Assembly (NCBI GenBank): GCA_015134335.1
Contig: CP043975.1
Coordinates: 84,350-148,349 of the forward strand
Source of the DNA: Candidatus Stammera capleta
GTDB lineage: Bacteria > Pseudomonadota > Gammaproteobacteria > Enterobacterales > Enterobacteriaceae
Reading direction: 5' to 3'
DNA length: 64,000 nt
Shown: one piece after another, positions 1,278 through 59,232 of the stretch
Layout: the number at the start of each line of letters is the position of its first letter
Numbering within the stretch: position 1 is the stretch's first letter
Made by a program: the position numbers and the translations under genes
The notes under the pieces: model-generated
Databases searched by the model: none
What the model was told of the DNA's origin: nothing
What the model saw: only the letters and a program-made list of their open reading frames with translations

Positions 1278-1351
1278 CGGTACGAACGGGACTCGAACCC
1301 GTGACCCCCAGCGTGACAGGCTGGTATTCTAACCAACTGAACTATCGCACC
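1278..1351 (-). tRNA. tRNA-Asp (anticodon GTC)
   Basis: The reverse complement GGTGCGATAGTTCAGTTGGTTAGAATACCAGCCTGTCACGCTGGGGGTCACGGGTTCGAGTCCCGTTCGTACCG is close to E. coli tRNA-Asp. It lies directly downstream of 5S, as in E. coli rrnC/rrnH. Confidence 0.92.
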
Positions 1352-1376
1352 TAAATTTATTAATTATTAAAATTAC

Positions 1377-1496
1377 ATACCTGGCGATTACTTACTCTCA
1401 CATAAGAAAAACTTATACTACCATCAGCGCCATAATATTTCACTTCTGAGTTCGGAATGGTATCAGGTGGTTCCATTACGCTATTGTCGCCAGATA
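1377..1496 (-). rRNA. rrf: 5S ribosomal RNA
   Basis: The reverse complement contains CTGGCGAC...CCACCTGATACCATTCCGAACTCAGAAGTGAAA...GCGCTGATGGTAGT...GAGAGTAAGTAATCGCCAGGTA, collinear with E. coli 5S. Confidence 0.9.
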
Positions 1497-1528
1497 TAAT
1501 AAAAAATTTTAAACATCTTAAAATTGTG
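1496..1528 (-). other. 3' flank of 23S forming one arm of the 23S processing helix
   Basis: Plus-strand 1501-1530 (AAAAAATTTTAAACATCTTAAAATTGTGAA) is the reverse complement of 4475-4505, apart from two G:U-compatible changes and a 1-nt bulge. Confidence 0.55.
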
Positions 1529-4476
<2,948 letters not shown>

Positions 4477-4507
4477 CACAATTTTAAAATGTCTAAAAAT
4501 TTTTTAG
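4477..4507 (-). other. 5' flank of 23S forming the other arm of the 23S processing helix
   Basis: Complementary to 1496-1528 (see that feature). This is the RNase III-type stem typical of bacterial rRNA precursors. Confidence 0.55.
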
Positions 4508-4516
4508 AACTTAACA

Positions 4517-4588
4517 CGTCCTCTAGGGGATTCGAACCCCTGTTGCCGCCGTGAAAGAGCGATGTCCTAACCTCTAGACGAAGAGGAC
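4517..4588 (-). tRNA. tRNA-Glu (anticodon TTC) in the 16S-23S spacer
   Basis: The reverse complement GTCCTCTTCGTCTAGAGGTTAGGACATCGCTCTTTCACGGCGGCAACAGGGGTTCGAATCCCCTAGAGGACG is near-identical to E. coli tRNA-Glu. Confidence 0.95.
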
Positions 4589-4652
4589 ATAACTCATAAA
4601 AAAAAATAATTATTGTAGATATAAAATTAATTACAAAATACTTAATACTTAA

Positions 4653-6290
<1,638 letters not shown>

Positions 6291-6492
6291 ACAAACTGAC
6301 TATACTTAAAAATTAGATATTCTTAAATATATGTAATTTAAAATATATCTACAAAAAATTATTTATTGTAAAGAACAAATTAATTATTAATTCAATAATT
6401 AATAATTAATTATTAAATACGTTTATCTAATATATCAACAAACTAACTATAATACAAGCAATATTTATATTTTTTTTAAAAAAAATTTATTA

Positions 6493-7729: not shown

Positions 7730-10153
7730 TTAATATTTATTTAACAAATTAAAATTTTTTTTAAATTTTTTAAATAATATTAATGATGTTTTAATAATTA
7801 TTTTTGGTAATCCAGTTTTTTTAGCAACATAAAAAGAACAACTATTATTACAATAACCCTCTTTGATTTTATATAAAAAAATAATATTATTATTTACTTT
7901 TATATAATTAAAATAAATTTTTTTTATATTTTTATATAAATTTCCTATATTCAAAATTTCAAAAAAATGAGTTGAAAACAAAGTTATACATTTTATATAT
8001 TTAGATATATAATTTAAACAAGACCAAGATAAGGCCATACCTTCATAAAAAGATGTACCACGACCCATTTCATCAATTAATATTAAACTATTTTTAGTTG
8101 CATTATTTATAATATAAGAAATTTCAGACATCTCAACCATAAAAGTTGATTTATTATCCATAATATCATCAGAAAATCCTATTCTGGTCAAAATTTTATC
8201 TATAATTCCAATATAAGCTTTAGTAACAGGTAAATAACTACCTATGCAACCCATTATACAAATAATAGCTATTTGCCTCATATACGTACTTTTACCTCCC
8301 ATATTAGGACCTGTTATAAACAAAGTTCTAACAAATTTATTATCGATAAAAAAATCATTACTAATAAATTTATCATCCAAATAATTTTCTAAAACAGGAT
8401 GACGACTATCTTTAAAATAAATATAAGAATATTTTTTAAATTTAGGCTTTTTATAATTATAATGAATAGCTATATAAACAAAACTAGACAAAACATCTAA
8501 TTTAGCTAAATATTTAGATATAATTTGTAAATCTACAATATAAAAAATAATTTTTTTTATAATTTTATTAAAAATTTTACTTTCTAATATTATTATTTTT
8601 TTTCTATTATAAAGAACTTTAATTTCAAATTCTTTTAATTCAGTAAAAAAAAATCTTATATGATTTTTTAAAGATTTAATTTTTATATAATGACTAGGTA
8701 TTAAATTAAAATCTTTTTTATTAATTTGTATATAATAACCATCTAATTTACTATAAATAATATGTAAATTTGATATATTATATTTTATTTTTTCAGAATT
8801 TTCTATATTAGAAATATATTTATAAACACTATTATCAAATTTCCTTAAATTATCTAATTTTTTACTATAACCTTTTTTAATTATAAAATTATTATCTAAG
8901 CTTTTTTCTTCTATAGAAGAACTTATTAAAAAAATAATCTTTTTTAAAATATTATATTTTTTATATAAAAAAAGAAATATATTATGTCTATTTATAGAAT
9001 TTTTTTTTTTATTAAATAATTTAATAATATTCAATATAGATTTTAAAAATATATTTAATTTTAATAAATCTTTAAATACTGCATTTTTTAAACAAATACG
9101 ACCTAAAACACGCTCTAAATCACCTATTTTTCTTAAAAAAAACCTTAACTCATCATTTCATAACCAAATAATATTCATTATAAAATGCCTATCTTTTAGT
9201 TTAATAAAATCAAAAATAGGATTTATAATTCATCTTCGTAACAAACGACTACCCATTGGGGTTAACGTTTTATCTAAAAAATATAATAAAGAATTTTTTT
9301 TATTATTATATAAAGAACTAATCAATTCTAAATTAGATATTGTATTAAAATCAATAAATATATACTTATTTTTTTTATTATATTTTATTAAATTAATATG
9401 TTTAAAATTAACTAATTGAGTAAATTTAATATACTTTAACAAACATCCAGCTGGAATAATTCCCATATTGTTAAAGCTAATATTAAAAATATTTAAATTA
9501 GAAACCTTAAAATGATTTAATAAAATTTTTAAAGATTTATTATACGAAAAATATTTTATAGAAATTTTATTATAAAATATATTTTTATTTTTTATTAATA
9601 ATATATTAAAATTTTTATTTGAATAAAGAACTTCCTTAGGATTCGTTTTAAAAATTTCACTCTTTAAATCATTTACATTTTTAAATTTAAATAAATTAAA
9701 CTTACCACTAAAAATATCTATTACAGAATAATAATAAATATTATTATATAAATAAATACAACTTATTAAATTATCATATTTCTTACCTATATAATAACTT
9801 TCAGAAATAGTACCTGGAGTAATTATTTTAAAAACTTTTCTTTTCTTTAAAGAAAGATCTTTATTTTTAAGACTATTATTAACTTGATTACAAATAACAA
9901 CAGATTCACCTAATTTAATTAATTTTAAAATATATCTTTTACTGCTTTTTAAAGGAAGACCTGCCATAGGCACATTTTTTTGTTTAACAAACTTTTTAAA
10001 AGTTAATTTTAAATTCAATAAATTAGATATCTTTATAGCATCATCATAAAATAATTCATAAAAATCTCCTATTTGATAAAACAATAATATCTTTTTATAT
10101 CTTTTTTTAATATTTAAATATTGTTTAATTATAGGACTCAAATATATAGACAT
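7730..10153 (-). CDS. mutS: DNA mismatch repair protein MutS (intact under UGA=Trp)
   Basis: Track ORFs 9230..10153 and 7730..9034 are one frame joined through TGA codons at 9230-9232 (LDKTLTPMGSRLLRRW) and 9158-9160. Walker A is GPNMGGKST, followed by DEMGRGTS. 807 aa. Confidence 0.92.
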
Positions 10154-10162
10154 AAAATATAT

Positions 10163-10561
10163 TTAACGCTTAGAATATTGATGACGACAACGAGATTTAC
10201 GTAAACCATATTTTTTACGCTCTACAATTCTAGAATCTCTGGTTAAAAAACCTAAAGGTTTTAAATATTTACGTAAACTAATATCAAATTTTAATAATAT
10301 TCTACTAATAGCTAGACGAATAGCTATACATTGACTGCTAATACCACCTCCTCTAACTGTAATATTATAATTATAATTATTTAAAAAATTATTATTCTTA
10401 ATAACCCCAAAAACTTGCATTATTATTAACTTAAATTTTTTTAAAAAAAAATATTTATCAATGAATATACCATTAATAATTATTTTACCGTTTCCAGATT
10501 TACTAAAAACTCTTGCCACTGATGTTTTTCTTCTTCCTATACTAAAAAATATACTATTCAT
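10163..10561 (-). CDS. rpsI: 30S ribosomal protein S9
   Basis: 132-aa ORF ending ...GLRKSRCRHQYSKR. Lies in rplM-rpsI synteny. Confidence 0.9.
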   Translation of the reverse strand: MNSIFFSIGRRKTSVARVFSKSGNGKIIINGIFIDKYFFLKKFKLIIMQVFGVIKNNNFLNNYNYNITVRGGGISSQCIAIRLAISRILLKFDISLRKYLKPLGFLTRDSRIVERKKYGLRKSRCRHQYSKR

Positions 10562-10581
10562 ATAATATTTATTTATTAAAT

Positions 10582-10998
10582 TTAATTTATTAAAATTAAT
10601 TTTTGTGCTATATGTTTATGATAATTATTACAATAAATTTTTAATCTTTTTAACATTAATCTTCCTAAATAATTTTTAGGCAACATTCCTTTAACAGCAT
10701 ACCTAATAATTCTATCTGGAAATTTTTTTAATAAAACATTATAACTAATACACTTTAATCCACCCACATAACCACTATGCTTATAATATACTTTTTTATA
10801 CTTTTTATTACCAGACAATATTATACTATTAGCATTTAATACAACTACATAACCCCCATTAACTATATTAGATTTATAATTATAATTATTTTTACCCATT
10901 AATAAATAAACAATTTTAGTACAAAAACGACCTAATATTTGAGATTTAGCATCCAACAAATATCATAAATTATTATTATTAATACTTTTTATAAACAT
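10582..10998 (-). CDS. rplM: 50S ribosomal protein L13
   Basis: The track ORF extends upstream through TGA 10963-10965 to the ATG at 10996-10998: MFIKSINNNNLW YLLDAKSQILGR... (E. coli ...RDWYVVDATGKTLGR). Confidence 0.88.
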
Positions 10999-11023
10999 AA
11001 AATTTTCATCCTATATAAAATTT

Positions 11024-12475
11024 TTACTTATTTAAACCACCAACTATCATATCATTTATTTTTAAAGTAGGCTGACCCACATTAACAGGAATAACTTGAT
11101 TTTCTTTTACGCATCATCCCATACCATGATCAAACTTAAAATCATTACCTACCATACTAATCTTTTTCATTATATCTACTGAAGAACCAATTAAAGTAGC
11201 TCCTTTAACAGGATTCATTATTCTACCTTTTTTTATCAAATAACCCTCTAAAATTGTAAAAACAAAATTACCACTTGAAATATCAACTTGACCACCAGAT
11301 AAATGTGATATATATAAACCATAATCTATACTATTTATAATTTCATTAAAACAATATTTACCTACACATAAATAAGTATTACTCATTCTAGGTAAAGGTA
11401 AATCACTAAATGATTCTTTACGAGCACTACCATTAGATCTTAAATCTAATAAACGAGCATTAAATTTATCTAATAAATACGTTTTTAAAATTCCATTTTT
11501 AATTAAAATTTTTTTTCGAGATTTTTCTCCTTCATCATCAATACTATAACTTCCTTTGTTTTCAAATATACTACTATCATCTATAACAGTACAATGCTTA
11601 GAAGCTACTTTTTTATTTAATAAATTACTGAAAATAGAAATTTTTTTACTAATAAAATCACTTTCTAAACCATGACCAACAGCTTCATGTAACAAAACAC
11701 CAGGTGAACCACTAGCTAAAACAATAGGCATTTTACCTGCAGGGGCATTAATAGCATATAAATTATTAATAGCTATACGTACTGATTCAGAAGCTCAATA
11801 ATAAATTAACAAATCATTATCATATTTTTTATTCAATAATTCTTCAAAAGAATAACTACCACCTCCTCCACTTATACCAATTTCATTATTATTATTACTA
11901 GTAATATTAACTTTAATTAAAATATTAATCATTGGTCTTATATCAAAAGATAAACTATAATTAGTATTAGCAACTAAAATTAAATCATATTTACTAATTA
12001 AATTTATAGTAATATAATTAATTCTACTATCCATTTTCTTTATATAATTATATAAATCAAATAATATATTTATTTTATTTATATTAAATTTAAAATTAAT
12101 AGGAGAAATAATATTATTAATTAATTTATTTTTAATAATAAACAATTTTTTGTTTTTATCTAAAATATTTTGTTTATATACCAATCCTAATTTTTTAATT
12201 AATTCTAAAATAGACTTCTTATTAATAATACTACTATATGAAAATATAGTATTATTATTTTTATTTAATCTAATACTTACACCTTGTTTATATTTTAAAA
12301 TATTTCTCTTTAAAATATTATTTTCTAAAATTAAAGATTCACTATAAGAATCTTGTAAATAAATATCTCCATAATCAGAATCTATAATACATAAATTATT
12401 TAATAAATTTACCAAATCAGATTCCGAAATATTGTTTTTAAACAAAAGATTATTATATACTATATCTAAATTCAT
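11024..12475 (-). CDS. tldD: metalloprotease TldD
   Basis: Track ORFs 11795..12475 and 11114..11731 are joined in frame through TGA 11795-11797 and extended through TGA 11114-11116. Contains GVLLHEAVGHGLE. C-terminus is ...GMGW CVKENQVIPVNVGQPTLKINDMIVGG. TAA at 11024-11026. Confidence 0.88.
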
Positions 12476-13044: not shown

Positions 13045-13285
13045 AAAAGCAGGTGGTTCCACTAAAAATGGAAGAGATTCACATTCAAAAAGATTAGGTA
13101 TTAAATGTTTTGGTAATCAAAAAGTATATCCTGGATATATAATTGTTAAACAACGAGGAACTAAATTCCATCCAGGAAAAAATGTAAAATGTGGAAAAGA
13201 TTATACATTATATGCTACTAAAAAAGGTTATGTAAATTTTAAGATTAAAGGATATAATAAAAAAAAATATGTAAATGTTATATAA
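13034..13285 (+). CDS. rpmA: 50S ribosomal protein L27
   Basis: [24 protein letters not shown]...[14 protein letters not shown]. Confidence 0.93.
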
Positions 13286-14281
13286 ATGTATAAAATACCT
13301 ATAATAAAAAAAATAAAATTAAAATTAATTTCTGGAAACGGAGGAAGTGGTTTAGTTAGTTTCTATAGAACAAAATTTATAAAAAAAGGAGGACCTGATG
13401 GAGGTAATGGAGGTAAAGGAGGTAATATTTATTTTAAAACAGATAAAAAAATAAATTCATTAGAACATTTACAAAATAAAAAAATTATAAAAGCACAAAA
13501 TGGTGAAAACGGTAAAAAAAACAATAAAACAGGTAAAAATGGTAAATCTATATTTATTAATATACCTATAAACACTAAAATAACAATTATAAAAAAAAAC
13601 AAAAAAAAAAATTACATATTTAAAAAATATAAACAATTAATTATTATTAATAAAGGAGGTAAAGCAGGAATAGGTAATAATTATTTAAAAAATTCAACAA
13701 ATATAACTCCTTTACAATGTATAAAAGGACAACCAGGGAATATAATTAATATAGTTATACAAAAAATATATAAAAATAATATTATATTAATAGGATTACC
13801 TAATTCTGGAAAATCAAGTATATTTAAAAAATTGACATTAATTAAAAATATTAAAATAACAAATTATCCATATAGTACTTTATATACTAATATAAAAAAT
13901 ATTATAATAAATAAAAAAAAAACAAAATTTCATATTATTGATACACCTTCAATTTTATATAAAATGAATAAAAAAAAATTACTTATTAAAAATATTTATT
14001 TTATTAAAAATTGCAAATTAATACTTTATGTAATTGAATATAATATTAAAATCACATATTTAATTAAAAATATAAAAATTATTTATAAAATATTAAAAAT
14101 ATATAATACACAATTATGAATAATTATTAATAAATATGATTTTCAAAACAAAAATTATATAAAAACAATTAAAAAAATATTTTTAAAAAAATTTATTAAT
14201 ATTAAAATATTTTTTATTTCTATAATAAATAATTATGGAATTAAAAAATTTATATATAAATTAACAAAATATATACAATAA
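13286..14281 (+). CDS. obg: GTPase Obg/CgtA
   Basis: Glycine-rich Obg fold (GNGGSGLVSF...GGPDGGNGGKGGNIYF) and G1 motif GLPNSGKSS. The track ORF extends through TGA 14117-14119 to TAA 14279-14281. The ATG abuts the rpmA stop. Confidence 0.88.
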
Positions 14282-14682: not shown

Positions 14683-15291
14683 ATAAAAAAAAAATGAATT
14701 CATTACATTCGTAATGATAAATATAAAAAATTATCTATTAAATATAATTTAAAATCTAGGTCTTGATTTAAAATATTTGAAATAGATAAAAAATATAAAA
14801 TTTTTAAAAAAAATAACAATATAATAGATTTAGGGTCTTCACCAGGCGGATGATCTAAATATTGTATTACTAAAATAAAACCTAAAGGTAAAATTTTTTG
14901 CTGTGATATAATTCCAATGCAAAAAATATATAATACATTTTTTATAAAAGGTAATATTAATAAAATTAAAATATTAAATATAATAATAAAAAAAACAAAT
15001 AAATTAATTATAAATAATATTATTTCAGATATATCACCAAACATAACTGGAATTTATGAAACAGATTATTATAATCAAAAAAAAATAATAAATAATATAT
15101 TATGATTATGTAAAAAAAAACTTATTAATAAAGGAAATTTAATTATAAAAATATTTTTAGGAAAATTGTTTAATAAAATATTAAAAAAAATAAAAAATAT
15201 ATTTAATTATATTAAAATTTTCAAACCACAATCTTCAAATTTCTTTTCTAAAGAAATATATATAATAGCTAAAAATTATAATAAAACTTAA
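14683..15291 (+). CDS. rlmE: 23S rRNA U2552 2'-O-methyltransferase RlmE/FtsJ (start codon uncertain)
   Basis: ...KKKW IHYIRNDKYKKLSIKYNLKSRSW FKIFEIDKKYKIF...IIDLGSSPGGW(TGA 14851-14853)SKY...DISPNITG...KIF.G..F, collinear with E. coli RlmE. It lies upstream of ftsH as in E. coli. There is no in-frame ATG: either ATA at 14683 initiates, or the ATG at 14679 is used after a 1-nt loss in the A10 run. Confidence 0.8.
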
Positions 15292-15311
15292 TTTTATAAT
15301 ATATAAAAAAT

Positions 15312-17076
15312 ATGAAAAACATTAAATTAATTTTTTGAATAATAGTTACATTAATATTATTATATATAATTAACCTTAATATTTATGAACATCCTTATAT
15401 TAATGAAATTAATTATTCTAATTTTTTAATGGATTTAAAAAATAATATTATTAAAAGAATAAGAATTAATAATAAAGAATTAAATATAATAACTAATTAT
15501 GATTATGCATATAAAGTATATATGCCCTTTAAAGATACTAGCTTAATTAATAAATTAATTAAAAAAAATATATTAATAGAAACTAACAATAATAATAATC
15601 ATAATTTTTTAATATCATTAATTATTTCATGATCTCCGATTTTATGTACATTAATTATAATAATATTATTAATAAAATACATTATTAATAATAATTTAAC
15701 ATTATTCAATAATAATAAAGCACAAAAATATAATAAAAATTTTAAAATAAATTTTAAACAAATAGCAGGATGCGAAGAAGTTAAAAATGAAATAACTGAT
15801 ATTATAGAATATTTAAAAAAACCTAAAAAATTTAAAAAATTAGGAGCTAAAATTCCTAAAGGAATATTAATGATAGGTCCTCCTGGAACAGGAAAAACAT
15901 TATTAGCTAAAGCAATAGCCAGGCGAAGCTAAAGTTCCTTTTTTTAATATTTCAGGATCAGATTTTGTTGAAATATTTGTAGGAGTTGGAGCAGCAAGAA
16001 TGAGAGCAATGTTTCAAAAAGCTAAACAATTAGCTCCAAGTATAATATTTATAGATGAAATAGATGCTGTTGGAAAAAAACGATCATCTCATCAATTACA
16101 AAGTAATGATGAAAGAGAACAAACTCTTAATCAAATGTTAGTAGAAATGGATGGTTTTAATAGTCAAAAAACAGTTATAGTTATTGGAGCAACAAATAGA
16201 CCTGAAGTTTTAGACAAAGCTCTACTTAGACCAGGTAGATTCGATAGAAAAATAATAATAAATTTACCAGATTTAAAAGGCCGTTATAAAATACTAAAAA
16301 TACATATAAAAAATATTCCTGTTAAAAAAAATATTGATATTAAAACAATAGCAAAAAGTACTTCTGGATTTTCTGGTGCAGATTTAGCTAATTTAATTAA
16401 TGAAGCAGCATTATTAGCAGCAAAAAAAAATCTTAAAAAAATTACTAATAAAGAATTAGAAAGCTCTAAAGATAAAATAATAATGGGAGCTTCTAGAAAA
16501 TCATTAATAATGAATCAACAACAAAAAGAATTAACAGCATATCATGAATCAGGGCACGCTATTGTAAGTATAATGGTACCATATCATGATCCTATACATA
16601 AAATAACTATTATTCCTCATGGTCAATCATTAGGTACAACTATGTTTTTACCTAAAAATGACAATATACTATTAAAAAAAACATTATTAGAAAGCAAAAT
16701 TTCTGCATTATATGGAGGAAGAATAGCTGAAGAAATAATATACGGATTTGAAAACATTTCTATAGGAGCTAGCAATGACATTAAAATAGCTACATATTTA
16801 GCTCAAAAAATGATAACTAAATGAGGTTTTTCTAAAAAAATAGCACCATTAATATATAATAAAAATATTTTAAATAATAAATATATATATTCAGAATATA
16901 TTAATAAAATAATTGATAAAGAAATACAATATTTAATAAAAAAAAATTATAAAATAGCTAAAAAAATATTAACTAAAAATATCAATTTGTTACATAAAAT
17001 GAAAAAAAAATTAATAAAATATGAAACATTAAACAAAAAACAAATATTTAATTTAATTAAAAAATATTCAATATAA
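15312..17076 (+). CDS. ftsH: ATP-dependent zinc metalloprotease FtsH, interrupted by a +1 frameshift at about 15920/15921
   Basis: Frame 0 (15312-15929) encodes the TM segments and Walker A ([15 protein letters not shown]), then AGG CGA AGC TAA. Frame +1 from 15922 encodes [31 protein letters not shown]...[11 protein letters not shown]...[10 protein letters not shown]...HESGHAIV...W GFS..., ending at TAA 17074-17076. Confidence 0.85.
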
Positions 17077-22333: not shown

Positions 22334-22405
22334 TGGCCCCTATTGGACTCGAACCAACGACCAAGCGATTATGAGTCGCCTGCTCTACCACTGAGCTAAA
22401 GGGCC
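22334..22405 (-). tRNA. tRNA-Ile2 (anticodon CAT, presumably lysidine-modified)
   Basis: The reverse complement GGCCCTTTAGCTCAGTGGTAGAGCAGGCGACTCATAATCGCTTGGTCGTTGGTTCGAGTCCAATAGGGGCCA is near-identical to E. coli ileX rather than to Met or fMet tRNAs. tilS is present in this window. Confidence 0.8.
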
Positions 22406-23661: not shown

Positions 23662-24014
23662 GGGGTTGTTTGGTTTTGACAAAATATATAAGTTCTAATG
23701 TGCATGTCGAGGTAACGGTAGGCCGCGTTAAAAACCGTAAATTTAGTTGCAAATAACAACATAAATTATGCTTTAGCAGCTTAAACTGTATAAAGCCGTT
23801 TTTATATATTATTTTTACTCTTTATAAATATAAAAATGTCATTTAAAAGAGAAAAAGTTATAAACGTCTATATTTATAACTAATAATTTCAATAGACTAA
23901 TTAATTATTAATTTTGTTTATTTAAAATAATTAATAAAATATTAAAATAAAACAAACATGTAGTAACAAAAGAATAAATAATTTTGGAAGCGGGTTCAAC
24001 TCCCGCCAACTCCA
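23662..24014 (+). ncRNA. ssrA: tmRNA (SsrA)
   Basis: The 5' end GGGGTTGTTTGGTTTTGAC...GTGCATGTCGAGG and the 3' end GGAAGCGGGTTCAACTCCCGCCAACTCCA match E. coli ssrA. The tag reading frame at 23749-23784, GCA AAT AAC AAC ATA AAT TAT GCT TTA GCA GCT TAA, encodes ANNNINYALAA. Confidence 0.92.
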
Positions 24015-34834: not shown

Positions 34835-35176
34835 TTTATTATATTAATTTTAATATTTTTATTATATTAATTATTATAAATATATTTTTAAAATAATTTA
34901 TTTAATTTAATTTATATTAAATAAATTAACATTATATATATTTATATTATCTTATATATTTTAATTAATTAAACTATTTAATTAACTTAATACTTTATAT
35001 ATTATTATTGAGCTATTACTTCCAAAAAATTACATACAACACATTAATTTTATTAGTTTACTAGATAAATTATTATAAATCAATATTAAATTTTAAATTA
35101 TAAAAAAATTTTAAATATAATATTGATTATTAAAATTAAATATTTTATAATTACAAATTATTATAATATTATTGAA

Positions 35177-37075
35177 ATGTTATTTACAAAAAGTTATGAT
35201 TATAATGTTATTATTGTAGGAGGAGGTCATGCTGCTATAGAAGCTTCATATATATTAAGTAAAAAAAAATGTAGAACTTTATTAATAACATTTAATAAAA
35301 ATAAAATTGGAGAATTATCATGTAATCCTTCTATTGGTGGATTAGGGAAAAGTAATTTAGTAAAAGAAATTGATTCTTTATCAGGATTAATGGGTAAATT
35401 AGTAGATTTATCAGGTATTAATTATAAAATTTTAAATTCTAGTAAAGGTTATGCTGTAAGAGCTACTAGAGTACAAATTGATAAAGAATTATATAAAAAG
35501 AATGTAATATATTATTTAAATAAAAATAAAAAATATTTACATATTATAGAAGATGAAGTAATTGATTTGGTTATTTATAATAATATTGTATGTGGAGTTA
35601 AAACTCTTAAATATATAATTACTTCTTATATTGTAATTTTATGTGTTGGAACTTTTTTAGATTCTAAAATATTTATAGGTAATGATATTATTTATGCGGG
35701 GCGTTTAAATGATAATGGGTCTTATAAATTAGCTTTTAATTTAAAAAAATATTATCCATATTTTGGATATTTAAAGACTGGTACTCCTCCTAGACTAAAT
35801 AAATATACAGTAAATTTTAGTAATTTAGAAAAACAAGTTAGTGAAATAAAATTAATATCTAAATTCTCTTTTTTTAATTCATTAAGAAAAAATAAATTTA
35901 TTAAACAACATAATTGTTATTTAACATATACAAATTTAAATACTCATAAAATTGTTATTAAAAATTTATATAAAAGTCCATTATTTAATGGTTTGATAAA
36001 TTCTAAAGGTCCTAGATATTGCCCTTCTTTAGAGTATAAAATATATAATTTTTTAGATAAAAATCGACATAATATTTATTTAGAGCCTGAATCAATTTAT
36101 AATAATTATATTTATCCTAATGGGCTTTCTATGAGTTTTCCTTTAAATATTCAATATAAAATTATAAAATCTATAATGGGTTTAGGTTTTTCAAAAATAA
36201 TTATACCAGGATATTCGGTTGAATATATGTATTTAAATCCAATTTTTTTAAATAAAACTTTAGAAAGTAAGGTAATAAATAATTTATTTATAGCTGGTCA
36301 AATTAATGGTACTACAGGATATGAAGAAGCTGCAGCTCAAGGTTTAATTGCTGGTATAAATTCTTATTTAAAAATTAGTAATAAAAAATTATTTATACCT
36401 AAAAGATTAAATTCTTATATAGGTGTATTAATTGATGATTTATGTACAAAAGGTATTAAAGAACCTTATAGAATTTTTAATTCTAGATCAGAATTTAGTT
36501 TGTATTTGAGAGAAGATAATGCAGATTATCGATTAACTCCTATTGCTAAAAAATTAGGTTTAATTAATAATAAGAAGTGAATTTTTTTTAAAAATAAAAT
36601 GAATCAAATATATAAAATTTCAAAATTTATTATTAATAAAATTTATAATATTAATGATTTAAAAACTAAATGACAAAAATTATATAAAAATAAAAAAACA
36701 ATTCAAGCAAAATCTTTAATTTGTAATTCTTGTATTAAATTTAATAAAATAAAAAAATTTATTTTTAAAGATAAAAAAAAATTTTTATCTAATAAATTTT
36801 TAAAAGAAATAAAAATATTATTTATATATAAAGGTTATATTAAAAGACAAAAATTAGAACTTTTTAAATATAAATTATATGAAAAAATTTTATTACCTAA
36901 TAAGATTAAATATGAAAATATTAAAGGTTTATCAAACGAAGTAATACAAATATTAAATTATATTAAACCAAATTTTTTAGGTCAATTATTAAGAATTTCG
37001 GGGATAACTCCTATATCTCTAATGATTATTTATATTTATCTTAAAAAGCATAAATTAATTAATATTGTTGATTAA
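35177..37075 (+). CDS. mnmG: tRNA uridine 5-carboxymethylaminomethyl modification enzyme MnmG (GidA)
   Basis: MLFTKSYDYNVIIVGGGHAAIEA...CNPSIGGLGKSNLVKEIDSL...LKTGTPPRL...GPRYCPSLE...AGQINGTTGYEEAAAQGLIAG...REDNADYRL. Extended through TGA 36578-36580 to ...GLSNEVIQILNYIKP..LGQLLRISGITP. TAA at 37073-37075. Confidence 0.93.
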
Positions 37076-43967: not shown

Positions 43968-44038
43968 GCGAATATATTATAAAGGTATTATATTAGCCTT
44001 CCAAGCTAATAATGTGGGTTCGAGTCCCACTATTCGCT
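43968..44038 (+). tRNA. tRNA-Gly (anticodon TCC)
   Basis: GCGAATATATTATAAAGGTATTATATTAGCCTTCCAAGCTAATAATGTGGGTTCGAGTCCCACTATTCGCT aligns with E. coli glyT. Confidence 0.88.
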
Positions 44039-46618
44039 TTTTATATTTATATATATATTATTTTTAATATTAATTATATTTTTAAATTTATTTAATTTTT
44101 TTATAATTTTAAATTTTATTTTTTTTATATAATAAATTTTTAATAAATATATATTTTTCTTAATAATTTTTTTTTCAGTTTTTGATAAATTTATAATTAT
44201 TAATTTTTTTATATTATTAATTTTATTTTTTTTTAAAATTTTTATTATATTTTTTATTATATTAAATATATATATTGTTTTTTTGTTTTTATATTTTGAA
44301 TAATTTATATATTTTATAATTTTATAGCTTAATATAGATGGTTTTTTTTTGTTAAAAATATTATTTATGAAAATAATTTTTTTTCATATATATTCTGTTA
44401 AAAAAGGAATAATAGGATGATTTATTAAAATAATATTTATGAAAACAATTTTTAATATTATTAAATTATTAATACTTATATATTTACTTTTTTTATATTT
44501 AAAAATTTTTTTAAACAATTCAATAAACCAATTACAAAAAATAGTAATTAAAAATTTTTGTATTTTTATACATAGTTTTTGAAATTTAAAATTTTTAATT
44601 AATTTTTTATATTGTTTAAGTAATTTATTAAATTTATATAATATTCAATAATTTATTAAGTTTTTTTTTATATATTTATAATTAAAATTTATAATATTTT
44701 TTATATTATAATTTAAATTTTTATTATTTTTAAAAAATTTTATTATAAATTTAGATATATTTAATAGTTTATTACAAAAATTATAACTATTTTTTAAAAA
44801 TTGAAAATTAAAATTAATTTTTAGTTTGTTTGATGAAATATTATATAATGTATATCTTAAAATATCTGTTCCATAAGCGGGTATTCCATTAGGAAAATAT
44901 TTTTTAGTATTATTAATAATTTTTTTTTTTAAATTATTTTTAATTAAATATTTAGTTCTTTTAATTATTAAATTTTTTAAACTTATGCCATATATTATAT
45001 CTTTAGGTGTAATTATATTTCCTGTTGATTTAGACATTTTATTGCCATTTTCATCAGTTATTAATCCTGTTATTAATACTTTTTTAAAAGGTATTAAATT
45101 GTAGGATTTATTTAATAATAATGGTGTTATTATTATCATTCGTGCTATTCAAAAATAAATTATATCAAACCCACTTACTATTAAATTTATAGGATGAAAT
45201 TTATGTGAAAAATTTTTAGGTCATCCTAAACTAGTTAAAGTCCATATTGATGATGAAAACCATGTATCTAAAATATTAATATCTTGTTTTAAATAAATAT
45301 TTTTATTTAAGTTATATTTTTTAATGATATGTTTTTTATTATATCCTAAATATATTTTTTTAAATTTATCATATCAAATAGGTATTTTATGACCTCAACA
45401 AATTTGTCTTGATATACATCAATCTTGAATATTTTTAATTCAAGAAAATAATAAATTTTTATATTTATTAGGTATAAAAATTATTTTTTTATATTTAATA
45501 TATTTAAAACAATTTTTAGTTAATGATTTCATTTTTAAAAATCATTGTTTAGTAAGTATTTTTATAATTTTTGTATTAGTTTTTGTACTGTAAGAAACAG
45601 GTTTAATTATTTTAATTGTTTTATAAATATATTTATTATTTATTAAAAATTTTATAATTTGTTTTTTATTTTTATATATATTTTTAATATTATTTTTAAT
45701 TTTTATACATTTATAATTTAATATATTAATTTTTTTTTTTAAATTACCATTTTTTTTTAAAATATTTATAATGTTAATTTTTTTTTTTTTAGCTTTTTTA
45801 AAATGTGAAATTTTATGACCAGGAGTTAAATTAATATAATATTTTATATTTTTTTTTTTTTTTAAAATTATAGGTAATTTTATATTATTTATAGGATTTA
45901 TAATAAATTTATATTTTTTAATAGTTTTATCATTTGTTAAAATTGCTGTATTAGATAATAAAAGTTCAGGTTTAGTAGTAGGAATAATAATATATTTATT
46001 TTTAGTATTATATAATTTATATTTAATAAAATATTGTTTAACTTTTTTTTTTTTTTTATATATTTCTATATCAGATAAAACAGTTTTAATTTTTACATCT
46101 CAATTAATTATTTTATAATCTTGATAAATTAATTTTTTTTTATATAGAATAATAAATGCTTTTTTAACTGCTTTAGAATAATTTTTATCTAATGTAAATT
46201 TTTTACTTTTTCAAAATATACTATTACCTAATAATTTTGTTTCTTTATATATTTTATATTCATATTTATATTTTCATTTTCATAATTCTTTTATTAATTT
46301 TTTTTTATCATATATTTTATATTTTTTTTTTAAATAATTTTCCACAATTATTTGAGTAGATATACCTGCATGATCTATTCCAGTTAGTCAAATAGTATTA
46401 AATCCTGACATTTTTTTATATCTAATAATTAAATCCATTATAGCTTGTTGATAAGCATGTCCTAAATGTAAATTACCTGTAATATTAGGAGGTGGCATTA
46501 TAATAGAGAAATTTTTTTTATGTTTAATATTTTTGTTATTTGGATTAAATAATTTATTTTTAAGTCAAAATTTATAAATATTTTTTTCTTTTATTAAAAT
46601 ATTTAAAATATTTTTCAT
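44030..46618 (-). CDS. valS: valyl-tRNA synthetase
   Basis: 862-aa frame under UGA=Trp from the ATG at 46616-46618: ...PPPNITGNLHLGHA...W DVKIKTVLSDIE...TTKPELLL...IQDW CISRQICW GHKIPIW Y...LDTWFSS...VSGFDIIYFW IARMI...GNKMSKSTGN...FPNGIPAYGTDILR...NHPIIPFLTEYIW. The TAG stop at 44030-44032 lies inside the tRNA-Gly(TCC) gene on the other strand. Confidence 0.92.
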
Positions 46619-48175: not shown

Positions 48176-48742
48176 ATGGTAAATATAAAAAATAATTTAT
48201 TTGTTGGAAATAAAATTATATATTTAAATGAACCTTATAATATTGAATTTGTAGATTTTATAAAGCCTGGTAAAGGAAAACCATTTGTAAGAATTAAAAT
48301 ACGTAATTTAATTAATTTAAAATTAATTGATAAAACTTTTAAATTTTTAAAAAATATAAAAATAGCTAATATATATAATTATAATTGTAATTATATTTAT
48401 TTTAATAATAAAAGTTTATATTTTTTAAATTTAATTAATTTAGAACAAGTAGTTTTAACAAAAGATTTAATAGGAAATAAAATAATTTGATTATATAAAA
48501 ATAATATATATAATATAATTTTTTGAAATAATATTCCTATTAATTTAATAATTCCTAAAATTATAAAGATTAAAGTTATATTTACTGATTTTATTATAAA
48601 CAAAAATACTAATAAAAAATATAAATTAGCAAAATTAATAAATGGAGTTTATATTAAAGTTCCATTTTTTATAAATATTGGAGATTTAATAAAAGTAAAT
48701 ACTTACAAGAAATTATATATATCTCGTTATATTAAAATATAA
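48176..48742 (+). CDS. efp: elongation factor P
   Basis: ...EPYNIEFVDFIKPGKGKPFVRIKIRNL... (the Lys34 loop is conserved). Extended through TGA 48488-48490 to TAA 48740-48742. Confidence 0.88.
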
Positions 48743-48769
48743 ATAAAAAAAAATATAAAATAAATAAAA

Positions 48770-48843
48770 CAGGGGCAGAAGGAATTGAACCCTCAACCTA
48801 TGGTTTTGGAGACCACTGTTCTACCTAATTAAACTATGCCCCT
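48770..48843 (-). tRNA. tRNA-Trp with unchanged CCA anticodon
   Basis: The reverse complement AGGGGCATAGTTTAATTAGGTAGAACAGTGGTCTCCAAAACCATAGGTTGAGGGTTCAATTCCTTCTGCCCCTG aligns with E. coli tRNA-Trp. Anticodon loop is CTCCAAA, discriminator is G73, and the D stem is GTTT/GAAC (U11:A24). Confidence 0.9.
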
Positions 48844-48857
48844 AATTTTTTTTTTAT

Positions 48858-48930
48858 TAGGTCTAAGTGGAGTTGAACCACTGACCTCACCCTTATCAGG
48901 GGTGTGCTCTTACCTCTGAGCTATAGACCT
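48858..48930 (-). tRNA. tRNA-Ile (anticodon GAT), located outside the rRNA operon
   Basis: The reverse complement AGGTCTATAGCTCAGAGGTAAGAGCACACCCCTGATAAGGGTGAGGTCAGTGGTTCAACTCCACTTAGACCTA aligns with E. coli tRNA-Ile1. Confidence 0.92.
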
Positions 48931-49182
48931 TTAATTATTTTTAAATAATTAAGATATATTAAATTATTTTTATTATAACAAATATTTTTTTTTATGTCAT
49001 TAAATGTAATTTATAAATTTAAAATTATTTATTAATTAATATATATAATTTTTTTTAATTTTTATATTTTATATAATATAAAATTATATATTTTTATTAA
49101 TTTAAATTATTTTAAAATTATATTAAAATATTAATATAATAAATATTTAAATATTATAATATATTGTTAAATTAATTAATAT

Positions 49183-50859
49183 ATGAAGACCAAAAAATAT
49201 TGTTTATTTACAAGTATTAAAAATAAAATGAATTTTAAAGAATATGATATATATTCATTAATGATTCAAGCTGGTTTTATTAGAAAAATATGTTCTGGTA
49301 TATTTATATTATTACCAAATGGATTACAAATTATTAATAATATTATTAATATTATAAGAAATAAAATGAATTTATTAAATTCATTAGAATTAAATTTACC
49401 TATTATAGTTCCTTCAAATTTATGAATAAGAAGTAGTAGAATATATAGTTACGGTTCTGAATTATATAAAATTTATGATAGAAATAATAAATTGTTTATT
49501 TTATCTCCTACTAGTGAAGAAGTAATTACTAAATTTTTTTTAAAAGAAAAATATTTATTGAATAATTATCCATATATATTTTATCAAATTAATTATAAAT
49601 TTAGAGATGAAATACGTCCTAAAGCTGGAATTATTAGAAGCAAAGAGTTTTTAATGAAAGATGCTTATTCATTTCATAAATCAAAATCTTGTTTAGATAA
49701 AATATATATAGATTTATTAAACATATATATAGATATATTTAAAGAATTAAAATTAGATGTTTTTTATAAAGAGGCTAAATGTGGTAAAATAGGTGGTGCT
49801 TTATCACATGAATTTCATACTAATTCTATTTATGGAGAAAATTATTATTATATTAAAAAAATAGATATAATAAAAAATTTTTATAATATTATAATAAAAA
49901 AAAATAAAATAAAAAAATTTAAAATTAGGTATTTTAATACTAAAATATTTAATAAATTAAATATTTTAGAAAATATTAAATTGTATAAATTTATTAAAAC
50001 AAATATATTAAAAATTTATTTTATAAATAAAATTATTTATATAGTAGTATTAATTTCATATTATAAAATTATTGATTTAATGAAAATAAAAGATTTGTTT
50101 CCTTTATCAATTAAAATTAAAATTTTAAATGATAAAAATATTATTAAAAAATTTAATATATCTAATTTATTTTTAGGTCCTTTTACTTTAAATTATAGAA
50201 TTATAGCTGATTTTTCATTAATTAATTATAAAAATTTTATTATAGGAGCTAATATAAAAAATTGTTTTTTTTATAATGTTAATTGAATACAACATATTAA
50301 TATAGTTAATTTTATTGATATTAGTAAAAATATTTGTTTTAAAAGTAAAAATATAATTAATAAAAATTCAAATATAGTAAAATTTAAATCTTTAGAAATA
50401 GCTCATATTTTTAAATTATATAATATTTATACATTAAATTATGATATTAAAAATATTTATATGGGTTGTTATGGTATTGGAATATTTAGATTATTAACTA
50501 GTATTTTAGAAAAAAATTTATATAATAATAAAATTGTTTTACCTTTATCAATAACTTATTTTAAAATAGGAATTATACCTGTTTTAATGTTTAAAAATAA
50601 AAATGTTTTTGATTTATCTTTTAAGATTTATTATTTTTTAATAAAAAATAATATAAATGTATTAATAGAAAACAGAAATATTTATATAGCAAAAACTTTT
50701 AATGATTTTGAAATAATAGGAATTCCTAATTTTTTAATAATTAGTAAAAATTTATTATTTATAAATAAAGTAGAATTTAGAGATCGTATTAATAATACAA
50801 TTTATTTGATTAATATAAAAGAAATATATAATTTTTTATTAAAAAAATATATATATTAA
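49183..50859 (+). CDS. proS: prolyl-tRNA synthetase
   Basis: Three track ORFs share one frame joined by TGA codons. Contains ...MIQAGFIRKICSGIFILLPNG...SPTSEEVIT...YQINYKFRDEIRPKAGIIRSKEFLMKDAYSF...GGALSHEF...LEIAHIF...MGCYGIG.... Confidence 0.92.
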
Positions 50860-50872
50860 TTAATAATTTATT

Positions 50873-52192
50873 TTATTTTTTTATATTTAAAATAATATTT
50901 CATCAATTATTTTTAGAAGGTTTTGCTTTTTTAGTAATGAATATATTAGGGCATAATATAGGAATTTTGTTATAAAAAATTATTGGAGTTAATTTTCTTT
51001 TTCATGGGAATATTTTATATTTTTGTCAAATATTTTTAATTTTTTGAGTTTTTTTATATAAAAGTTTAATTTTAAATTTATTTTTAATATTAAATTTTAT
51101 ATAAATATTTTCTTTTTTTGTTGGTTTACGAACTCTATTAAAATTTATATATTTTTTGTTTTTGTCTGTATTAGTATATAATACTCCTATGTCGTTAGGT
51201 AATTTAATAGTATTATTATTTTTATTTCATTTAATAGTTTTAATTTTTAATATTTTAAATTTTTTTTCTAAATATAAATTATTTTTATATTTTATAATTA
51301 TAAAATGTTTTAAATGTAATTGAAAATAATTTTTATTTTTATTTGTTTTTAATTTTTTTAATATTAAATATATTAATTTATATGAAATATAATTTTGATT
51401 ATTAATTTTAATAAATTTTCTTAATATTATTATTATTTCTTCATTTTGTAATTTATATATATTATTTAAATTTAAATATTTGTTTTTAATATATAAATTT
51501 ATTTTTTTTTTTATAAGTTTATTAATTAATTTATATTGATTATGACATATTTTTGAGTTACGATTTAAAGAACTATAAAAATATTTTCATCTTTTAACAA
51601 TTAAAGGTAATATTTTATGTCTTAAAAAATTTCTATCTAATTTTAAATTTAAATTACTATTATCTTCTATTCATTTTATATTATATTTAATAGCATTATT
51701 AATAATATATTTTTTATTTATATTAATAAATGGTCTTTTAATAATAAATTTTTTATTAAATATAGTTGTTTCTTTTATACCTATTAATCCTTTTAAACCT
51801 GTTCCTCTTTTTAACATTAAAAAAATAGTTTCTATTTTATCATTTAAATGATGAGCTAATAATAAAATTTCATTTTTTTTTATATTTTTAAAGTATATTT
51901 TTAATCTTTTTTTTCGTAATTTATTTTCTAAATTATTTATATTTTTTATATAAATATTTTTTATAATTAAAGGTATTTTAAGTTGTTTGCAAAATAATTT
52001 ACAGTGATTTTGTCATATTAAAGAATCTTTATGTATATTATGATTTATATGTATAGCTCTAATATTATTATTAATTTTGTATTTGTTTATATTATAAAGT
52101 AAAATAGTAGAATCTATTCCTCCGCTATAACCTATTAAAATATTATTATATTTATTTATAATTTTTTTTATTTTTTTTTTAATTAAATTCAT
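50873..52192 (-). CDS. tilS: tRNA(Ile)-lysidine synthetase TilS
   Basis: I translated all 439 codons by hand. The frame is uninterrupted under UGA=Trp: MNLIKKKIKKIINKYNNILIGYSGGIDSTILLYN... (PP-loop SGGxDS) ...HHLNDK...LDRNFLRHKILPLIVKRW. TAA at 50873-50875. It is invisible in the standard-code track. Confidence 0.88.
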
Positions 52193-52282: not shown

Positions 52283-52355
52283 GGGTCGTTAGCTCAGTTG
52301 GTAGAGCAGTTGACTTTTAATCAATTGGTCACAGGTTCGAATCCTGTACGACCCA
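52283..52355 (+). tRNA. tRNA-Lys (anticodon TTT)
   Basis: GGGTCGTTAGCTCAGTTGGTAGAGCAGTTGACTTTTAATCAATTGGTCACAGGTTCGAATCCTGTACGACCCA aligns with E. coli tRNA-Lys. Confidence 0.95.
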
Positions 52356-56109: not shown

Positions 56110-57750
56110 ATGAAACATATATTGGTTACATGTGCTTTACCGTATGCTAATGGTTCTATACATTTAGGTCATATTTTAGAACATATACAAGCTGATATTT
56201 GAGTAAAATTTAATAAAATGTTAGGTAATAAAGTTTATTTTATATGTGCTGATGATTCTCATGGTACAGCTGTATATTTAAAAGCGAAATCTTTACAAAT
56301 TAATCCTAAAAATATGATAAAAAATATTTTAGTTGAACATATTAATCAATTTATTAATTTTAATATTTTTCATAATTATTATTCAACAACTCATAGTAAA
56401 TATAATTATATTTTTCTAAAAAAATTTATTAATCGATGTCAAAAAAAGAATATTTTATATACTAAGAGTGTATTACAATTTTATGATAATACTAAAAAAA
56501 TATTTTTACCTGATAGATATATTGAAGGTACATGTCCTATTTGTAATAGTATTAATCAATATGGAGATAGTTGTTTTATTTGTGGTTCTATTTATAATAG
56601 TATAGATTTAATTAATCCAATTTCTAGATTATCATCAACTATTCCTAATTTAATGTATTCTGATCATTTGTTTATAAATTTAAATATTTTTAAAAATAAT
56701 TTAATTTATTGAATTAATGAATATAATTTAAATAAAAATGTTTTAAATCAATTATTAATATGGTTAAAAAATGATTTAATAGATTGAAATATATCTAGAG
56801 ATTTTCCTTATTTTGGTTTTAAAATACCTTCAAAATATATATATAATAAATATTTTTATGTATGATGTGATGCTTTATTAGGTTATATAAGTACTTTCTA
56901 TAAATATTGTAAATATAAAAAAAGTATTAATTTATTTTCAAATTTTTGAGATATTAATTCTAATTATGAGTTATATCATTTTATAGGTAAAGATATATTA
57001 TATTTTCATGGTATATTATGACCAATAATATTAAATATTTTAAATTATCGTCAACCTACTGGTTTAGTTGTACATGGACATATAATGATTAATGGAATTA
57101 AAATGTCTAAATCTTTAAATAATTATATAAATACTAATAATTGATTACAGTATTTTGATGCTGATAGTTTAAGATATTATTTAGCAAGTTTATTAAATAA
57201 TAGTATAAAAGATATAAATATTTCATTAAATGATTTAGTTAATAAAATAAATTCTGATATAGTTAATAAATTTATTAATATAGCTTCTCGTATATCTGGA
57301 TTTTTATATAAATATTTTAATAATATATTATCTAAGTTATTGTGAGATGATAATATATATAATTATTTTGTTAATAAGTCTATTATTATATATAATTTAT
57401 ATTTAAAATTTAATTATAATAAAATTATTATAGAAATTAATTTATTATTAGATATTATTAATAAATATATTAATGATCATAGTCCATGAATATTAAATAC
57501 TATTGGCAGTAAATTAAAAAATATTAATAATTTACATATGTTTTGTACTACTATAATTAATATTTTTAAAGTTTTATCAATATATTTAAATCCAATAATT
57601 CCTAATATTATTAGTAAAGTTAAAATTTTTTTAAATATAAAAAAATTATCATGAAATGATTTATATAAACCATTATTAAATCATAAAATTAAAAAGTATA
57701 TTAATATTTATAATCGTTTAAATATTTTAAATATAAATAAAATTTTATAA
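56110..57750 (+). CDS. metG: methionyl-tRNA synthetase (core enzyme, no C-terminal tRNA-binding appendage)
   Basis: [31 protein letters not shown]..., zinc knuckle CPICNS...CFICG, ...W DISRD-like [12 protein letters not shown]..., KMSKS at 57100-57114. 546 aa in one frame through many TGA codons. Confidence 0.92.
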
Positions 57751-58029: not shown

Positions 58030-59232
58030 ATGAAAATTTATTTAGTTGGCGGTTATGTAAGAGATAATTTGTTGGGATTAAAATCTATAAGTGATAAAGA
58101 TTGATTAGTAGTAGGAAGCTCTTATAGTAAAATGTTAAAATTAGGTTATAAGCCTGTAGGTAATTTTTTTCCTGTTTTCTTACATCCTATTACTAAAGAA
58201 GAATATGCATTAGCTAGAAAAGAATATAAAAATGGTTTAGGTTATAAAGGTTTTAATTGTGTTTTTGATAAAAGTATTTCTTTAGAAGAAGATTTATATA
58301 GAAGAGATTTAACGATTAATGCTATAGCAATGGATAAAAAAGGTAAATATTATGATCCTTATAATGGTTTAGAAGATATAAAAAACAGAATTATTAAACA
58401 TGTATCTAATTTTTTTAGTGATGATCCATTAAGATTAATTAGAGTTGCTCGTTTTAAAGCTTATTTATTTAATTTAAATTTTTATATACATAAAGATACT
58501 TATTTTTTAATGAAAAATATTGTTTTAAAAGGTGAATTATTATATATTTCTCCAGAAAGAATTTGAATAGAATTAAGAAAAGTATTAATTTTGAATAAAA
58601 ATATTTATATTTTTTTTAAAGTATTAAAAAGTTGTAATGCTTTATATATTATATATCCAGAATTAAATAATATATTTAATAGTAATATATTAAAATATTT
58701 TTTTAAGTTAATTTTTAGTAAATTAGAATTTTATAATTATGGTTATAATTTAAATTTTATTTTTTTGTTTTTTTTTTTTCATTATACATTTTTATATAAG
58801 AGTTTTTATGATAAAAAAAAATTTATTATTAATAGTATTAAAAATTTTTATAAAAAATTTAATTTACCTAAAAAATTATTTTTGTTATGTAAAAAAAGTT
58901 ATTATTTAATATATGAAATTTATATGTATAAAAAAAACATTGATATATCTATTTTTATATTGAATATTTTTTATAAAATTGATATTTGAAGAGATAATAA
59001 TTTTATTATTATAGTTTTAAAAATTATTAAAATTTTAAAATTAATTAATATTTATGATTTTTTTATATTAAATATTTTAGAAAAATATATATTAAAGGTT
59101 TTTACTAAAATTAATAAGATTAATTTTAAAAAATTATTAAAGATAAAAAATTTTAAAAATTTTGTAGATATTAAAAATTATATATATAATTTACGTTTGA
59201 GAAAAATAAAAAATATATTTTGTAATATATAA
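58030..59232 (+). CDS. cca: tRNA nucleotidyltransferase (CCA-adding enzyme), HD phosphohydrolase motifs not recognisable
   Basis: MKIYLVGGYVRDNLLGLKSISDKDW LVVG...VGNFFPVFLHPITKEEYALARKE...LYRRDLTINAIAMD...DPLRLIRVARF...ISPERIW, collinear with the E. coli Cca head domain. The C-terminal half is degenerate. Confidence 0.88.

Follow-up and report, generated by a model that had tools for sequence, protein, structure and literature searches.

The 64,000 nucleotides of Candidatus Stammera capleta analysed here (contig CP043975.1 of assembly GCA_015134335.1, positions 84,350 to 148,349; hereafter the window) make up about a quarter of a genome of some 260 kb and contain a single gene for tRNA-Trp, whose part in the reading of UGA as tryptophan (Trp) is the subject of this work. 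The gene was called on the minus strand by ARAGORN (48769-48844, anticodon CCA) and matched by the Rfam tRNA model RF00005 (67.4 bits, E = 1.6e-12). Read 5′ to 3′, the tRNA is AGGGGCA UA GUUU AAUUAGGUA GAAC A GUGGU CUCCAAA ACCAU AGGUU GAGGG UUCAAUU CCUUC UGCCCCU G, with no encoded 3′ CCA. Its D stem consists of the pairs G10:C25, U11:A24, U12:A23 and U13·G22 (U11 at 48833, A24 at 48819), its anticodon stem carries a G27·U43 wobble on top of four Watson-Crick pairs, and it retains A9, G73, a seven-nucleotide anticodon loop and the A36-A37-A38 motif. Also present is a member of the CCA-adding/poly(A) polymerase gene family, whose product would have to supply the 3′ CCA (Table 1). ARAGORN and Rfam find 16 tRNAs in the window, of which this is the sole tRNA-Trp and none has a UCA anticodon. 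All 16 have a Watson-Crick pair at 11:24, and it is the U·G wobble of E. coli tRNA-Trp at these positions that is the unusual state. The window tRNA-Trp is identical to that of Stammera CP043973.1 and the flanks of the two genes have diverged; the window strain is a Stammera strain distinct from CP043973.

The genetic code of the window was read from its 53 non-overlapping open reading frames (ORFs, translation table 4), which contain 111 in-frame TGA and eight TGG codons, TGA thus making up 93% of all Trp codons. TGA occurs in 37 of the 53 ORFs, and the stops comprise 50 TAA, three TAG and no TGA. In metG, nine of the ten in-frame TGA codons align with Trp residues of E. coli MetRS. A follows 55% of the TGA codons, compared with 50% in the background, which gives no context signal, and the GC content of the window lies between 13 and 20%. 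UGA encodes Trp in the window, which belongs to a lineage using translation table 4 (code 4).

That Stammera has only a CCA tRNA-Trp has been published before. Table 2 of PMC10540940 lists it as a code-4 symbiont whose trnW keeps CCA; across 49 Stammera genomes tRNA-Trp(CCA) is present and tRNA-Trp(UCA) absent, with prfB, the gene for release factor 2 (RF2), in 15 of the 49 (PMC13462651, Table 2); and the gTranslate preprint (10.64898/2026.05.24.727570) reports code-4 Stammera as ‘always’ without tRNA-Trp(UCA), together with five genomes forming a basal lineage that retains prfB and the standard code. The second tRNA-Trp(UCA) gene that the first-pass annotation had allowed for outside the window is therefore found in none of these surveys, and UGA must accordingly be read by something other than a genomic anticodon change. 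The Mycoplasmatales, Hodgkinia and Nasuia share the UGA-to-Trp reassignment in reduced symbiont genomes and differ in having a UCA tRNA-Trp, the anticodon having changed there and in no Stammera lineage.

The state of position 24 in E. coli was established by querying complete genome records with a trpT sequence carrying G24, for which best-place identity was at least 99% in 5,394 of 5,426 records; the five listed matches are 100% identical, and the matches are annotated as tRNA-Trp. In PMC11805395 and PMC13092985, the Hirsh mutation G24A is described as turning E. coli trpT into a UGA reader that passes more quickly through the forward steps and is stable in its bent conformation; with U11:A24 paired in the hinge, the bent A/T state is favoured, and both GTPase activation and accommodation are faster. 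Changes at 27:43 enhance the C·A wobble, and in an in vitro selection C27A gave no readthrough alone, yet was essential in the selected C27A/G24A/G59A triple mutant (PMC13092985). The window tRNA-Trp resembles trpT(G24A) in its unchanged CCA anticodon, in having U11:A24 instead of U11·G24, and in its anticodon loop, A9, G73 and type of acceptor stem. It differs at 13:22, 27:43, 28:42, 44/45 and the T arm, and above all in that A24 is the fixed wild-type state of Stammera, found also in standard-code relatives and not tracking UGA reading. The first-pass annotation, made from the letters of the window alone, had described a genome using UGA heavily for Trp, a sole tRNA-Trp with a CCA anticodon, a D stem GUUU/GAAC with U11:A24, and a contrast with U11·G24 of E. 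coli that recalls the Hirsh suppressor; each of these descriptions agrees with the codon counts, the metG alignment, the concordant ARAGORN, Rfam and sequence readings, and the verified G24 of trpT.

Position 24 was then followed across the Stammera radiation, in which about 25 further proteins are 73-86% identical to the window AtpD. Using AtpD homologues, the syntenic region (atp operon, valS, pepA, efp, tRNA-Trp, tRNA-Ile, proS) was taken from ten more Stammera genomes, and the comparison of tRNA-Trp covers 12 Stammera genes, that of the window and those of 11 other loci (designated by L numbers). The code of each genome was typed by counting in-frame TGA and TGG codons over about ten genes. 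The TGA/TGG counts are those of code 4 in L005 (42/2), L006 (36/3), L008 (40/1), L009 (63/4), L013 (38/3) and L014 (34/1), of an early code 4 in L010 (CP144790.1, GCA_036689315.1; 4/31 in nine genes), and of the standard code (code 11) in L007 (0/38), L011 (0/36, with one TGA stop) and L012 (0/37). The CCA anticodon and the U11:A24 pair are each present in 12 of the 12 genes, recoded and standard-code alike. A24 is clade-wide in Stammera; because it occurs in recoded and non-recoded lineages, it is not the recoding switch, and because the code-11 lineage is reported to be basal, it probably predates recoding. The literature we searched contains no statement that Stammera tRNA-Trp carries A24.

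The same pair occurs beyond Stammera. The tRNA-Trp of the Arsenophonus endosymbiont of Aleurodicus dispersus (ARAD; NZ_LR025108.1, 496-571) differs from E. coli trpT only by G24A and U45A, and seven neighbouring genes, with 14 TGG in total, are full length under table 11. This gene is a natural, literal Hirsh mutation in a standard-code symbiont. The tRNA-Trp of the free-living Bacillota Listeria, Bacillus, Paenibacillus and Enterococcus shares its acceptor 5′ strand, the D stem GUUU/GAAC with U11:A24 and the CCA loop with that of the window, and differs in belonging to standard-code hosts with RF2 and in having G:C-rich, fully Watson-Crick anticodon stems. For B. subtilis, inefficient reading of UGA as Trp has been reported (Lovett 1991, as cited in PMC2704378). 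When one genome for each GTDB species was scanned for an E. coli-type tRNA-Trp 5′ half with A24, four species were returned, including Stammera and Arsenophonus ARAD, a count that does not measure rarity, as the pattern is too narrow to give the frequency of A24 and would miss most Stammera alleles. Among close relatives A24 does not co-vary with UGA decoding, given its presence in code-11 Stammera, Arsenophonus and the Bacillota. The suggestion of the first-pass annotation that UGA is decoded through the D arm thus survives in part: A24 does exist and has mechanistic relevance in E. coli, but recoded lineages are not alone in having it, and as a sufficient cause it fails on L007, L011, L012, Arsenophonus ARAD and the four Bacillota. 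By analogy with E. coli, A24 may predispose to UGA reading and is at most permissive.

Variation that goes with the code is found in a different part of the molecule. In the three code-11 genes all five pairs of the anticodon stem, UUGGU/ACCAA, are Watson-Crick, while at least one non-Watson-Crick pair, at 27:43 or 30:40, is present in nine of nine code-4 genes and in none of the three code-11 genes. The pair in question is G27·U43 in the window and L003, G27xA43 in L009, and G30·U40 in L005, L006, L008 and L013; L014 combines G27·U43 with G30·U40, and L010 combines U27xU43 with G30·U40. The L010 stem departs from those of the code-11 genes, among them that of L007, its closest relative, at positions 40 and 43 only. 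A neighbour-joining tree of 2,816 residues places L010 with the code-11 lineages (58-74% bootstrap) and unites L005, L008, L013 and L014 (100%), which join the window (87%). U40 is found in three lineages that this tree does not unite and, given the tree, probably had more than one origin; the change U27-to-G opposes the AT bias. By our own arithmetic, Fisher's test of nine of nine against none of three gives p = 0.0045 (1/220), a value that is uncorrected and computed over lineages that are not independent. The association of stem pattern and code is suggestive, a lead and not a finding. The clade-wide A24 and the code-associated stem differences both appear not to have been published previously.

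Nearest-neighbour energies of the anticodon arm are −2.7 kcal/mol for the window, −2.2 for code-11 Stammera and −5.4 for E. coli, so that all Stammera arms are predicted to be far weaker than that of E. coli. Within Stammera, weakening is predicted for the G30·U40 alleles only (+0.7 to −0.1 kcal/mol against −2.2). A thermodynamic description of the code-4 alleles as weakened stems was considered and dropped, as neither the window allele nor that of L009 is predicted to be weaker, and the pattern is described instead as one of non-Watson-Crick geometry.

The stem alleles invite comparison with a known class. A 2026 NAR survey (PMC13092985) explains Zinderia and XS4 by an anticodon stem of 4 base pairs (bp) and lists Stammera only as a ‘5-bp stem’ case, with no mechanism proposed. 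The 4-bp-stem (‘Blastocrithidia-like’) tRNA-Trp(CCA) that it describes in Zinderia insecticola, Fastidiosibacteraceae XS4, Blastocrithidia and Condylostoma is likewise the sole CCA tRNA-Trp of a UGA=Trp genome without UCA, and is likewise changed at the top of the anticodon stem beside the hinge, where the pair is unpaired also in Stammera L009 and L010. The window differs, since its G27·U43 is a wobble and counts as a 5-bp stem, and since the class is defined as lacking A9C and G24A: the window keeps A9 and has A at position 24, which excludes it by definition. Zinderia itself differs further, with C11:G24 and A27xC43. An attribution of the window to Zinderia, suggested by its low GC content and by UGA = Trp, was rejected on this difference. 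The published ‘5-bp stem’ class for Stammera may hide relevant variation, and the window case is a variant of the Hirsh-suppressor and short-stem kinds of tRNA-Trp.

We favour an explanation, to which we assign a probability of roughly 0.55, in which UGA is read by near-cognate C34·A pairing, mainly through lost competition from RF2 and on an inherited, permissive tRNA body. The single tRNA-Trp(CCA) would read both UGG and UGA, with C34·A at the wobble position, and the main enabling event would be that RF2 no longer competes at UGA; according to published work, most code-4 Stammera have lost RF2. The permissive body would combine the Watson-Crick U11:A24 pair in the hinge, an AU-rich anticodon stem with a non-Watson-Crick pair, and an intact A36-A37-A38 motif allowing modification of A37. 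A24 would be an exaptation, a predisposition inherited from the Stammera ancestor and shared with lineages that keep both the UGA stop and prfB, and the stem changes a possible later tuning. The order of events would begin with an A24 tRNA that is leaky, in an AT-rich genome from which UGA stops are nearly absent, continue with RF2 becoming dispensable or being lost, and end with drift from TGG to TGA under AT pressure. We infer this ranking, with release-factor loss as main enabling event, A24 as predisposition and stem changes as later tuning. A comparable sequence was modelled by McCutcheon et al. (2009, PMC2704378), with a distal mutation in the D arm or anticodon arm allowing C·A mispairing, then RF2 loss, then recoding; that paper cites Hirsh (1971) and Schultz & Yarus (1994).

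The experimental counterpart of this explanation is the precursor of the E. coli ‘Ochre’ strain (PMC11903333), in which wild-type tRNA-Trp delivers about 80% Trp at UGA once RF2 stops recognising that codon, provided that A37 is modified. There, too, a CCA tRNA-Trp becomes the main UGA decoder after removal of release-factor competition, and the A36-A37-A38 motif on which the effect depends is kept in Stammera. The strain differs in being engineered, in having a tRNA with G24 and a G:C stem, and in decoding reporter codons instead of 93% of Trp codons.

Several observations weigh against the near-cognate explanation. With regard to the stem, the window arm is predicted to be no weaker than the code-11 arm; G·U pairs occur in the anticodon stems of the neighbouring tRNA-Ala, tRNA-Gly and tRNA-Tyr in both code groups (among the code-11 loci in tRNA-Gly at three of three and in tRNA-Tyr at two of three, with none in tRNA-Ile or tRNA-Thr); five of the 16 window tRNAs have such a pair, among them tRNA-Lys(UUU), with the same G27·U43 top pair as tRNA-Trp; and a correlation between stem and code without phylogenetic correction is weak evidence. 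With regard to RF2, some code-4 Stammera keep prfB (PMC13462651), and in the window, about a quarter of the genome, a motif search for prfA/prfB, miaA and trpS found none and no release-factor gene with the GGQ motif is present. Finally, a C·A mismatch at 93% of Trp codons would be costly, how much A24, the stem changes and RF2 loss would each contribute is a matter of inference, and the retention of C34 despite AT pressure, which the explanation leaves unexplained, could point to a modification of C34.

A more specific historical version of the same explanation, in which an ancestral Hirsh-type A24 was followed by lineage-specific disruption of the anticodon stem and recoding took place twice, in the main clade and in L010, mirrors the in vitro-selected synergy of G24A and C27A and is offered tentatively, as a scenario we regard as somewhat doubtful. 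Its second instance concerns L010, an early-stage recoder in which three of four TGA codons occupy Trp columns where code-11 lineages have TGG; its grouping with the code-11 lineage L007 hints at a second, independent UGA-to-Trp reassignment in Stammera. The TGA-bearing genes of L010 lie at 8902-11538, 13130-13672 and 14898-16166 of its locus, in which atpG was called as two fragments.

Of the competing explanations, the one that fares best dispenses with any special feature of the tRNA: an ordinary CCA tRNA-Trp would suffice without RF2, and both A24 and the stem wobbles would be neutral, AT-biased drift. The performance of the G24, fully G:C-stemmed E. coli tRNA-Trp in the absence of UGA recognition by RF2 (PMC11903333) supports it, and it is consistent with the G·U pairs in other Stammera anticodon stems of both code groups, with the AT-ward direction of G24-to-A and C40-to-U, and with a window stem not predicted to be weaker than code-11 stems. 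It does not account well for a pattern of nine of nine against none of three that was reached by substitutions of different kinds (U43, G27 and U40), for the occurrence of U40 in lineages lying apart on the tree, for U27-to-G opposing the AT bias, for the disruption of 27:43 in the other CCA-only recoders Zinderia and XS4 (PMC13092985), or for the code-4 Stammera that still have prfB (PMC13462651). We consider it possible but rather unlikely.

The conservation of the anticodon raises a further alternative. One AT-ward transition at C34 would yield the cognate UCA, and C34 is nonetheless unchanged in nine code-4 lineages, even though 93% of Trp codons in the window are UGA, the AT bias is strong and many other tRNA-Trp positions have changed repeatedly across Stammera; the whole loop CUCCAAA is invariant in all 16 tRNA-Trp genes compared. 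C34 might thus be altered post-transcriptionally, either by C-to-U deamination, as in kinetoplastid mitochondria, where editing of C34 in tRNA-Trp is a precedent (PMC8677022), or by a lysidine-like modification, possibly through relaxed specificity of TilS. The tRNA-Ile lysidine synthetase gene tilS is in fact retained, about 2 kb from the tRNA-Trp gene. Its retention, however, needs no further explanation, because the normal substrate of TilS, tRNA-Ile2(CAU), is encoded in the window; no cytidine deaminase was identified; and with lysidine the remaining UGG codons would be left unread, unless only part of the tRNA were modified. C34 is an identity element for TrpRS, which could explain why it is kept. 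With the U34-modification gene mnmG present, a U34 in tRNA-Trp, were there one, could be modified. Either U34 is incompatible with TrpRS identity in Stammera, or C34 is needed for a modification. We regard the alternative as improbable, and its stronger form, that C34 is kept in every code-4 lineage as the substrate of a post-transcriptional change that reads A (lysidine-like via TilS, or deamination), as more improbable still; if true, such an alteration would mean that bacteria have a further, novel way of reassigning codons.

The reading to which the U11:A24 pair first points, a G24-to-A change acting here as a natural Hirsh suppressor and as the specific adaptation that reassigned UGA, draws on the presence of A24 where E. 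coli has G24, on the lack of a UCA tRNA in Stammera (PMC13462651) and on the suppressor activity of G24A in E. coli, which PMC11805395 and PMC13092985 present as proven. It is very improbable in view of the comparative evidence, on which the prediction of A24 as a switch has already failed: A24 occurs in three Stammera lineages with no in-frame TGA (the published basal code-11 lineage retaining prfB, according to the gTranslate preprint), in Arsenophonus ARAD with its TGG-using genes and in four genera of Bacillota, and Watson-Crick pairing at 11:24 is the usual state, shared by all 16 window tRNAs. Stammera is an extracellular gut symbiont, a lifestyle that makes tRNA import unlikely, and a cognate tRNA-Trp(UCA) supplied by the host or encoded outside the window is scarcely credible, the limited share of the genome covered by the window notwithstanding, when three independent surveys of complete Stammera genomes find no UCA (PMC13462651, 49 genomes; 10.64898/2026.05.24.727570; PMC10540940).

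Table 1. Features of the window that bear on UGA decoding, and further elements mentioned in the text (positions are those of the window).
Feature	Position	Strand	Remarks
tRNA-Trp gene, anticodon CCA	48770..48843	-	ARAGORN, Rfam RF00005 and sequence
Anticodon C34-C35-A36 in loop CUCCAAA	48807..48809	-	C34 at 48809, A36 at 48807
D arm	48818..48834	-	5′ strand G10-U13 at 48834-48831; 3′ strand G22-C25 at 48821-48818
Anticodon arm, stem GUGGU/ACCAU	48800..48816	-	Top pair G27 (48816)·U43 (48800)
tRNA-Ile(GAU)	48858..48930	-	Conserved neighbour of tRNA-Trp at every Stammera locus examined
valS	44030..46618	-	15 in-frame TGA, three TGG; orthologues used for code typing in other Stammera
metG	56110..57750	+	10 in-frame TGA, code evidence
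tilS (tRNA-Ile lysidine synthetase)	50873..52192	-	Pfam PP-loop ATP_bind_3 5e-48, TilS_C, SGGxDS motif
tRNA-Ile2, anticodon CAU	22334..22405	-	Called Met by ARAGORN; 93% identical to E. coli genes annotated tRNA-Ile
mnmG (gidA)	35123..37075	+	U34-modification enzyme; Pfam GIDA 2.5e-126
tRNA-Lys(UUU)	52283..52355		Top pair G27·U43
CCA-adding/poly(A) polymerase family gene	58030..59232
efp-proS interval	48176..50859		Compared with L006, L007, L010, L011 and L012
rRNA operon	1278..6292	-	16S, tRNA-Glu, 23S, 5S, tRNA-Asp
16S rRNA match	4653..6292		1,640 nucleotides against a model of 1,533
tmRNA	23662..24014		Tag peptide ANNNINYALAA

The surroundings of the tRNA-Trp gene differ among the lineages. 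In code-11 and early lineages the efp-proS interval contains a NifU-like gene, a response regulator, a histidine kinase and hinT, all of which the window has lost, while CP043973 keeps hinT only; the interval shows genes being lost step by step along the Stammera clade. The layout of the window rRNA operon is one that we take to be that of E. coli rrnC, where trpT follows aspT. In Arsenophonus ARAD (L004, 314-571) tRNA-Trp comes directly after 5S; in Stammera it has moved beside tRNA-Ile(GAU). The length of the window 16S match implies insertions relative to the model, and tmRNA is retained despite the small size of the genome.

By what route a stop codon can turn into a sense codon while the anticodon stays the same is a long-standing question, addressed by the ‘ambiguous intermediate’ model of Schultz and Yarus and by the genome-reduction model of McCutcheon et al. 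(2009). Stammera provides a natural series for its study, comprising standard-code lineages, one lineage in which about 10% of Trp codons are TGA and others in which more than 90% are, all of them using the same CCA tRNA-Trp gene at the same genomic position. The code-associated positions 27:43 and 30:40 define a small, concrete set of alleles within this series, and would make the ambiguous-intermediate model directly testable.

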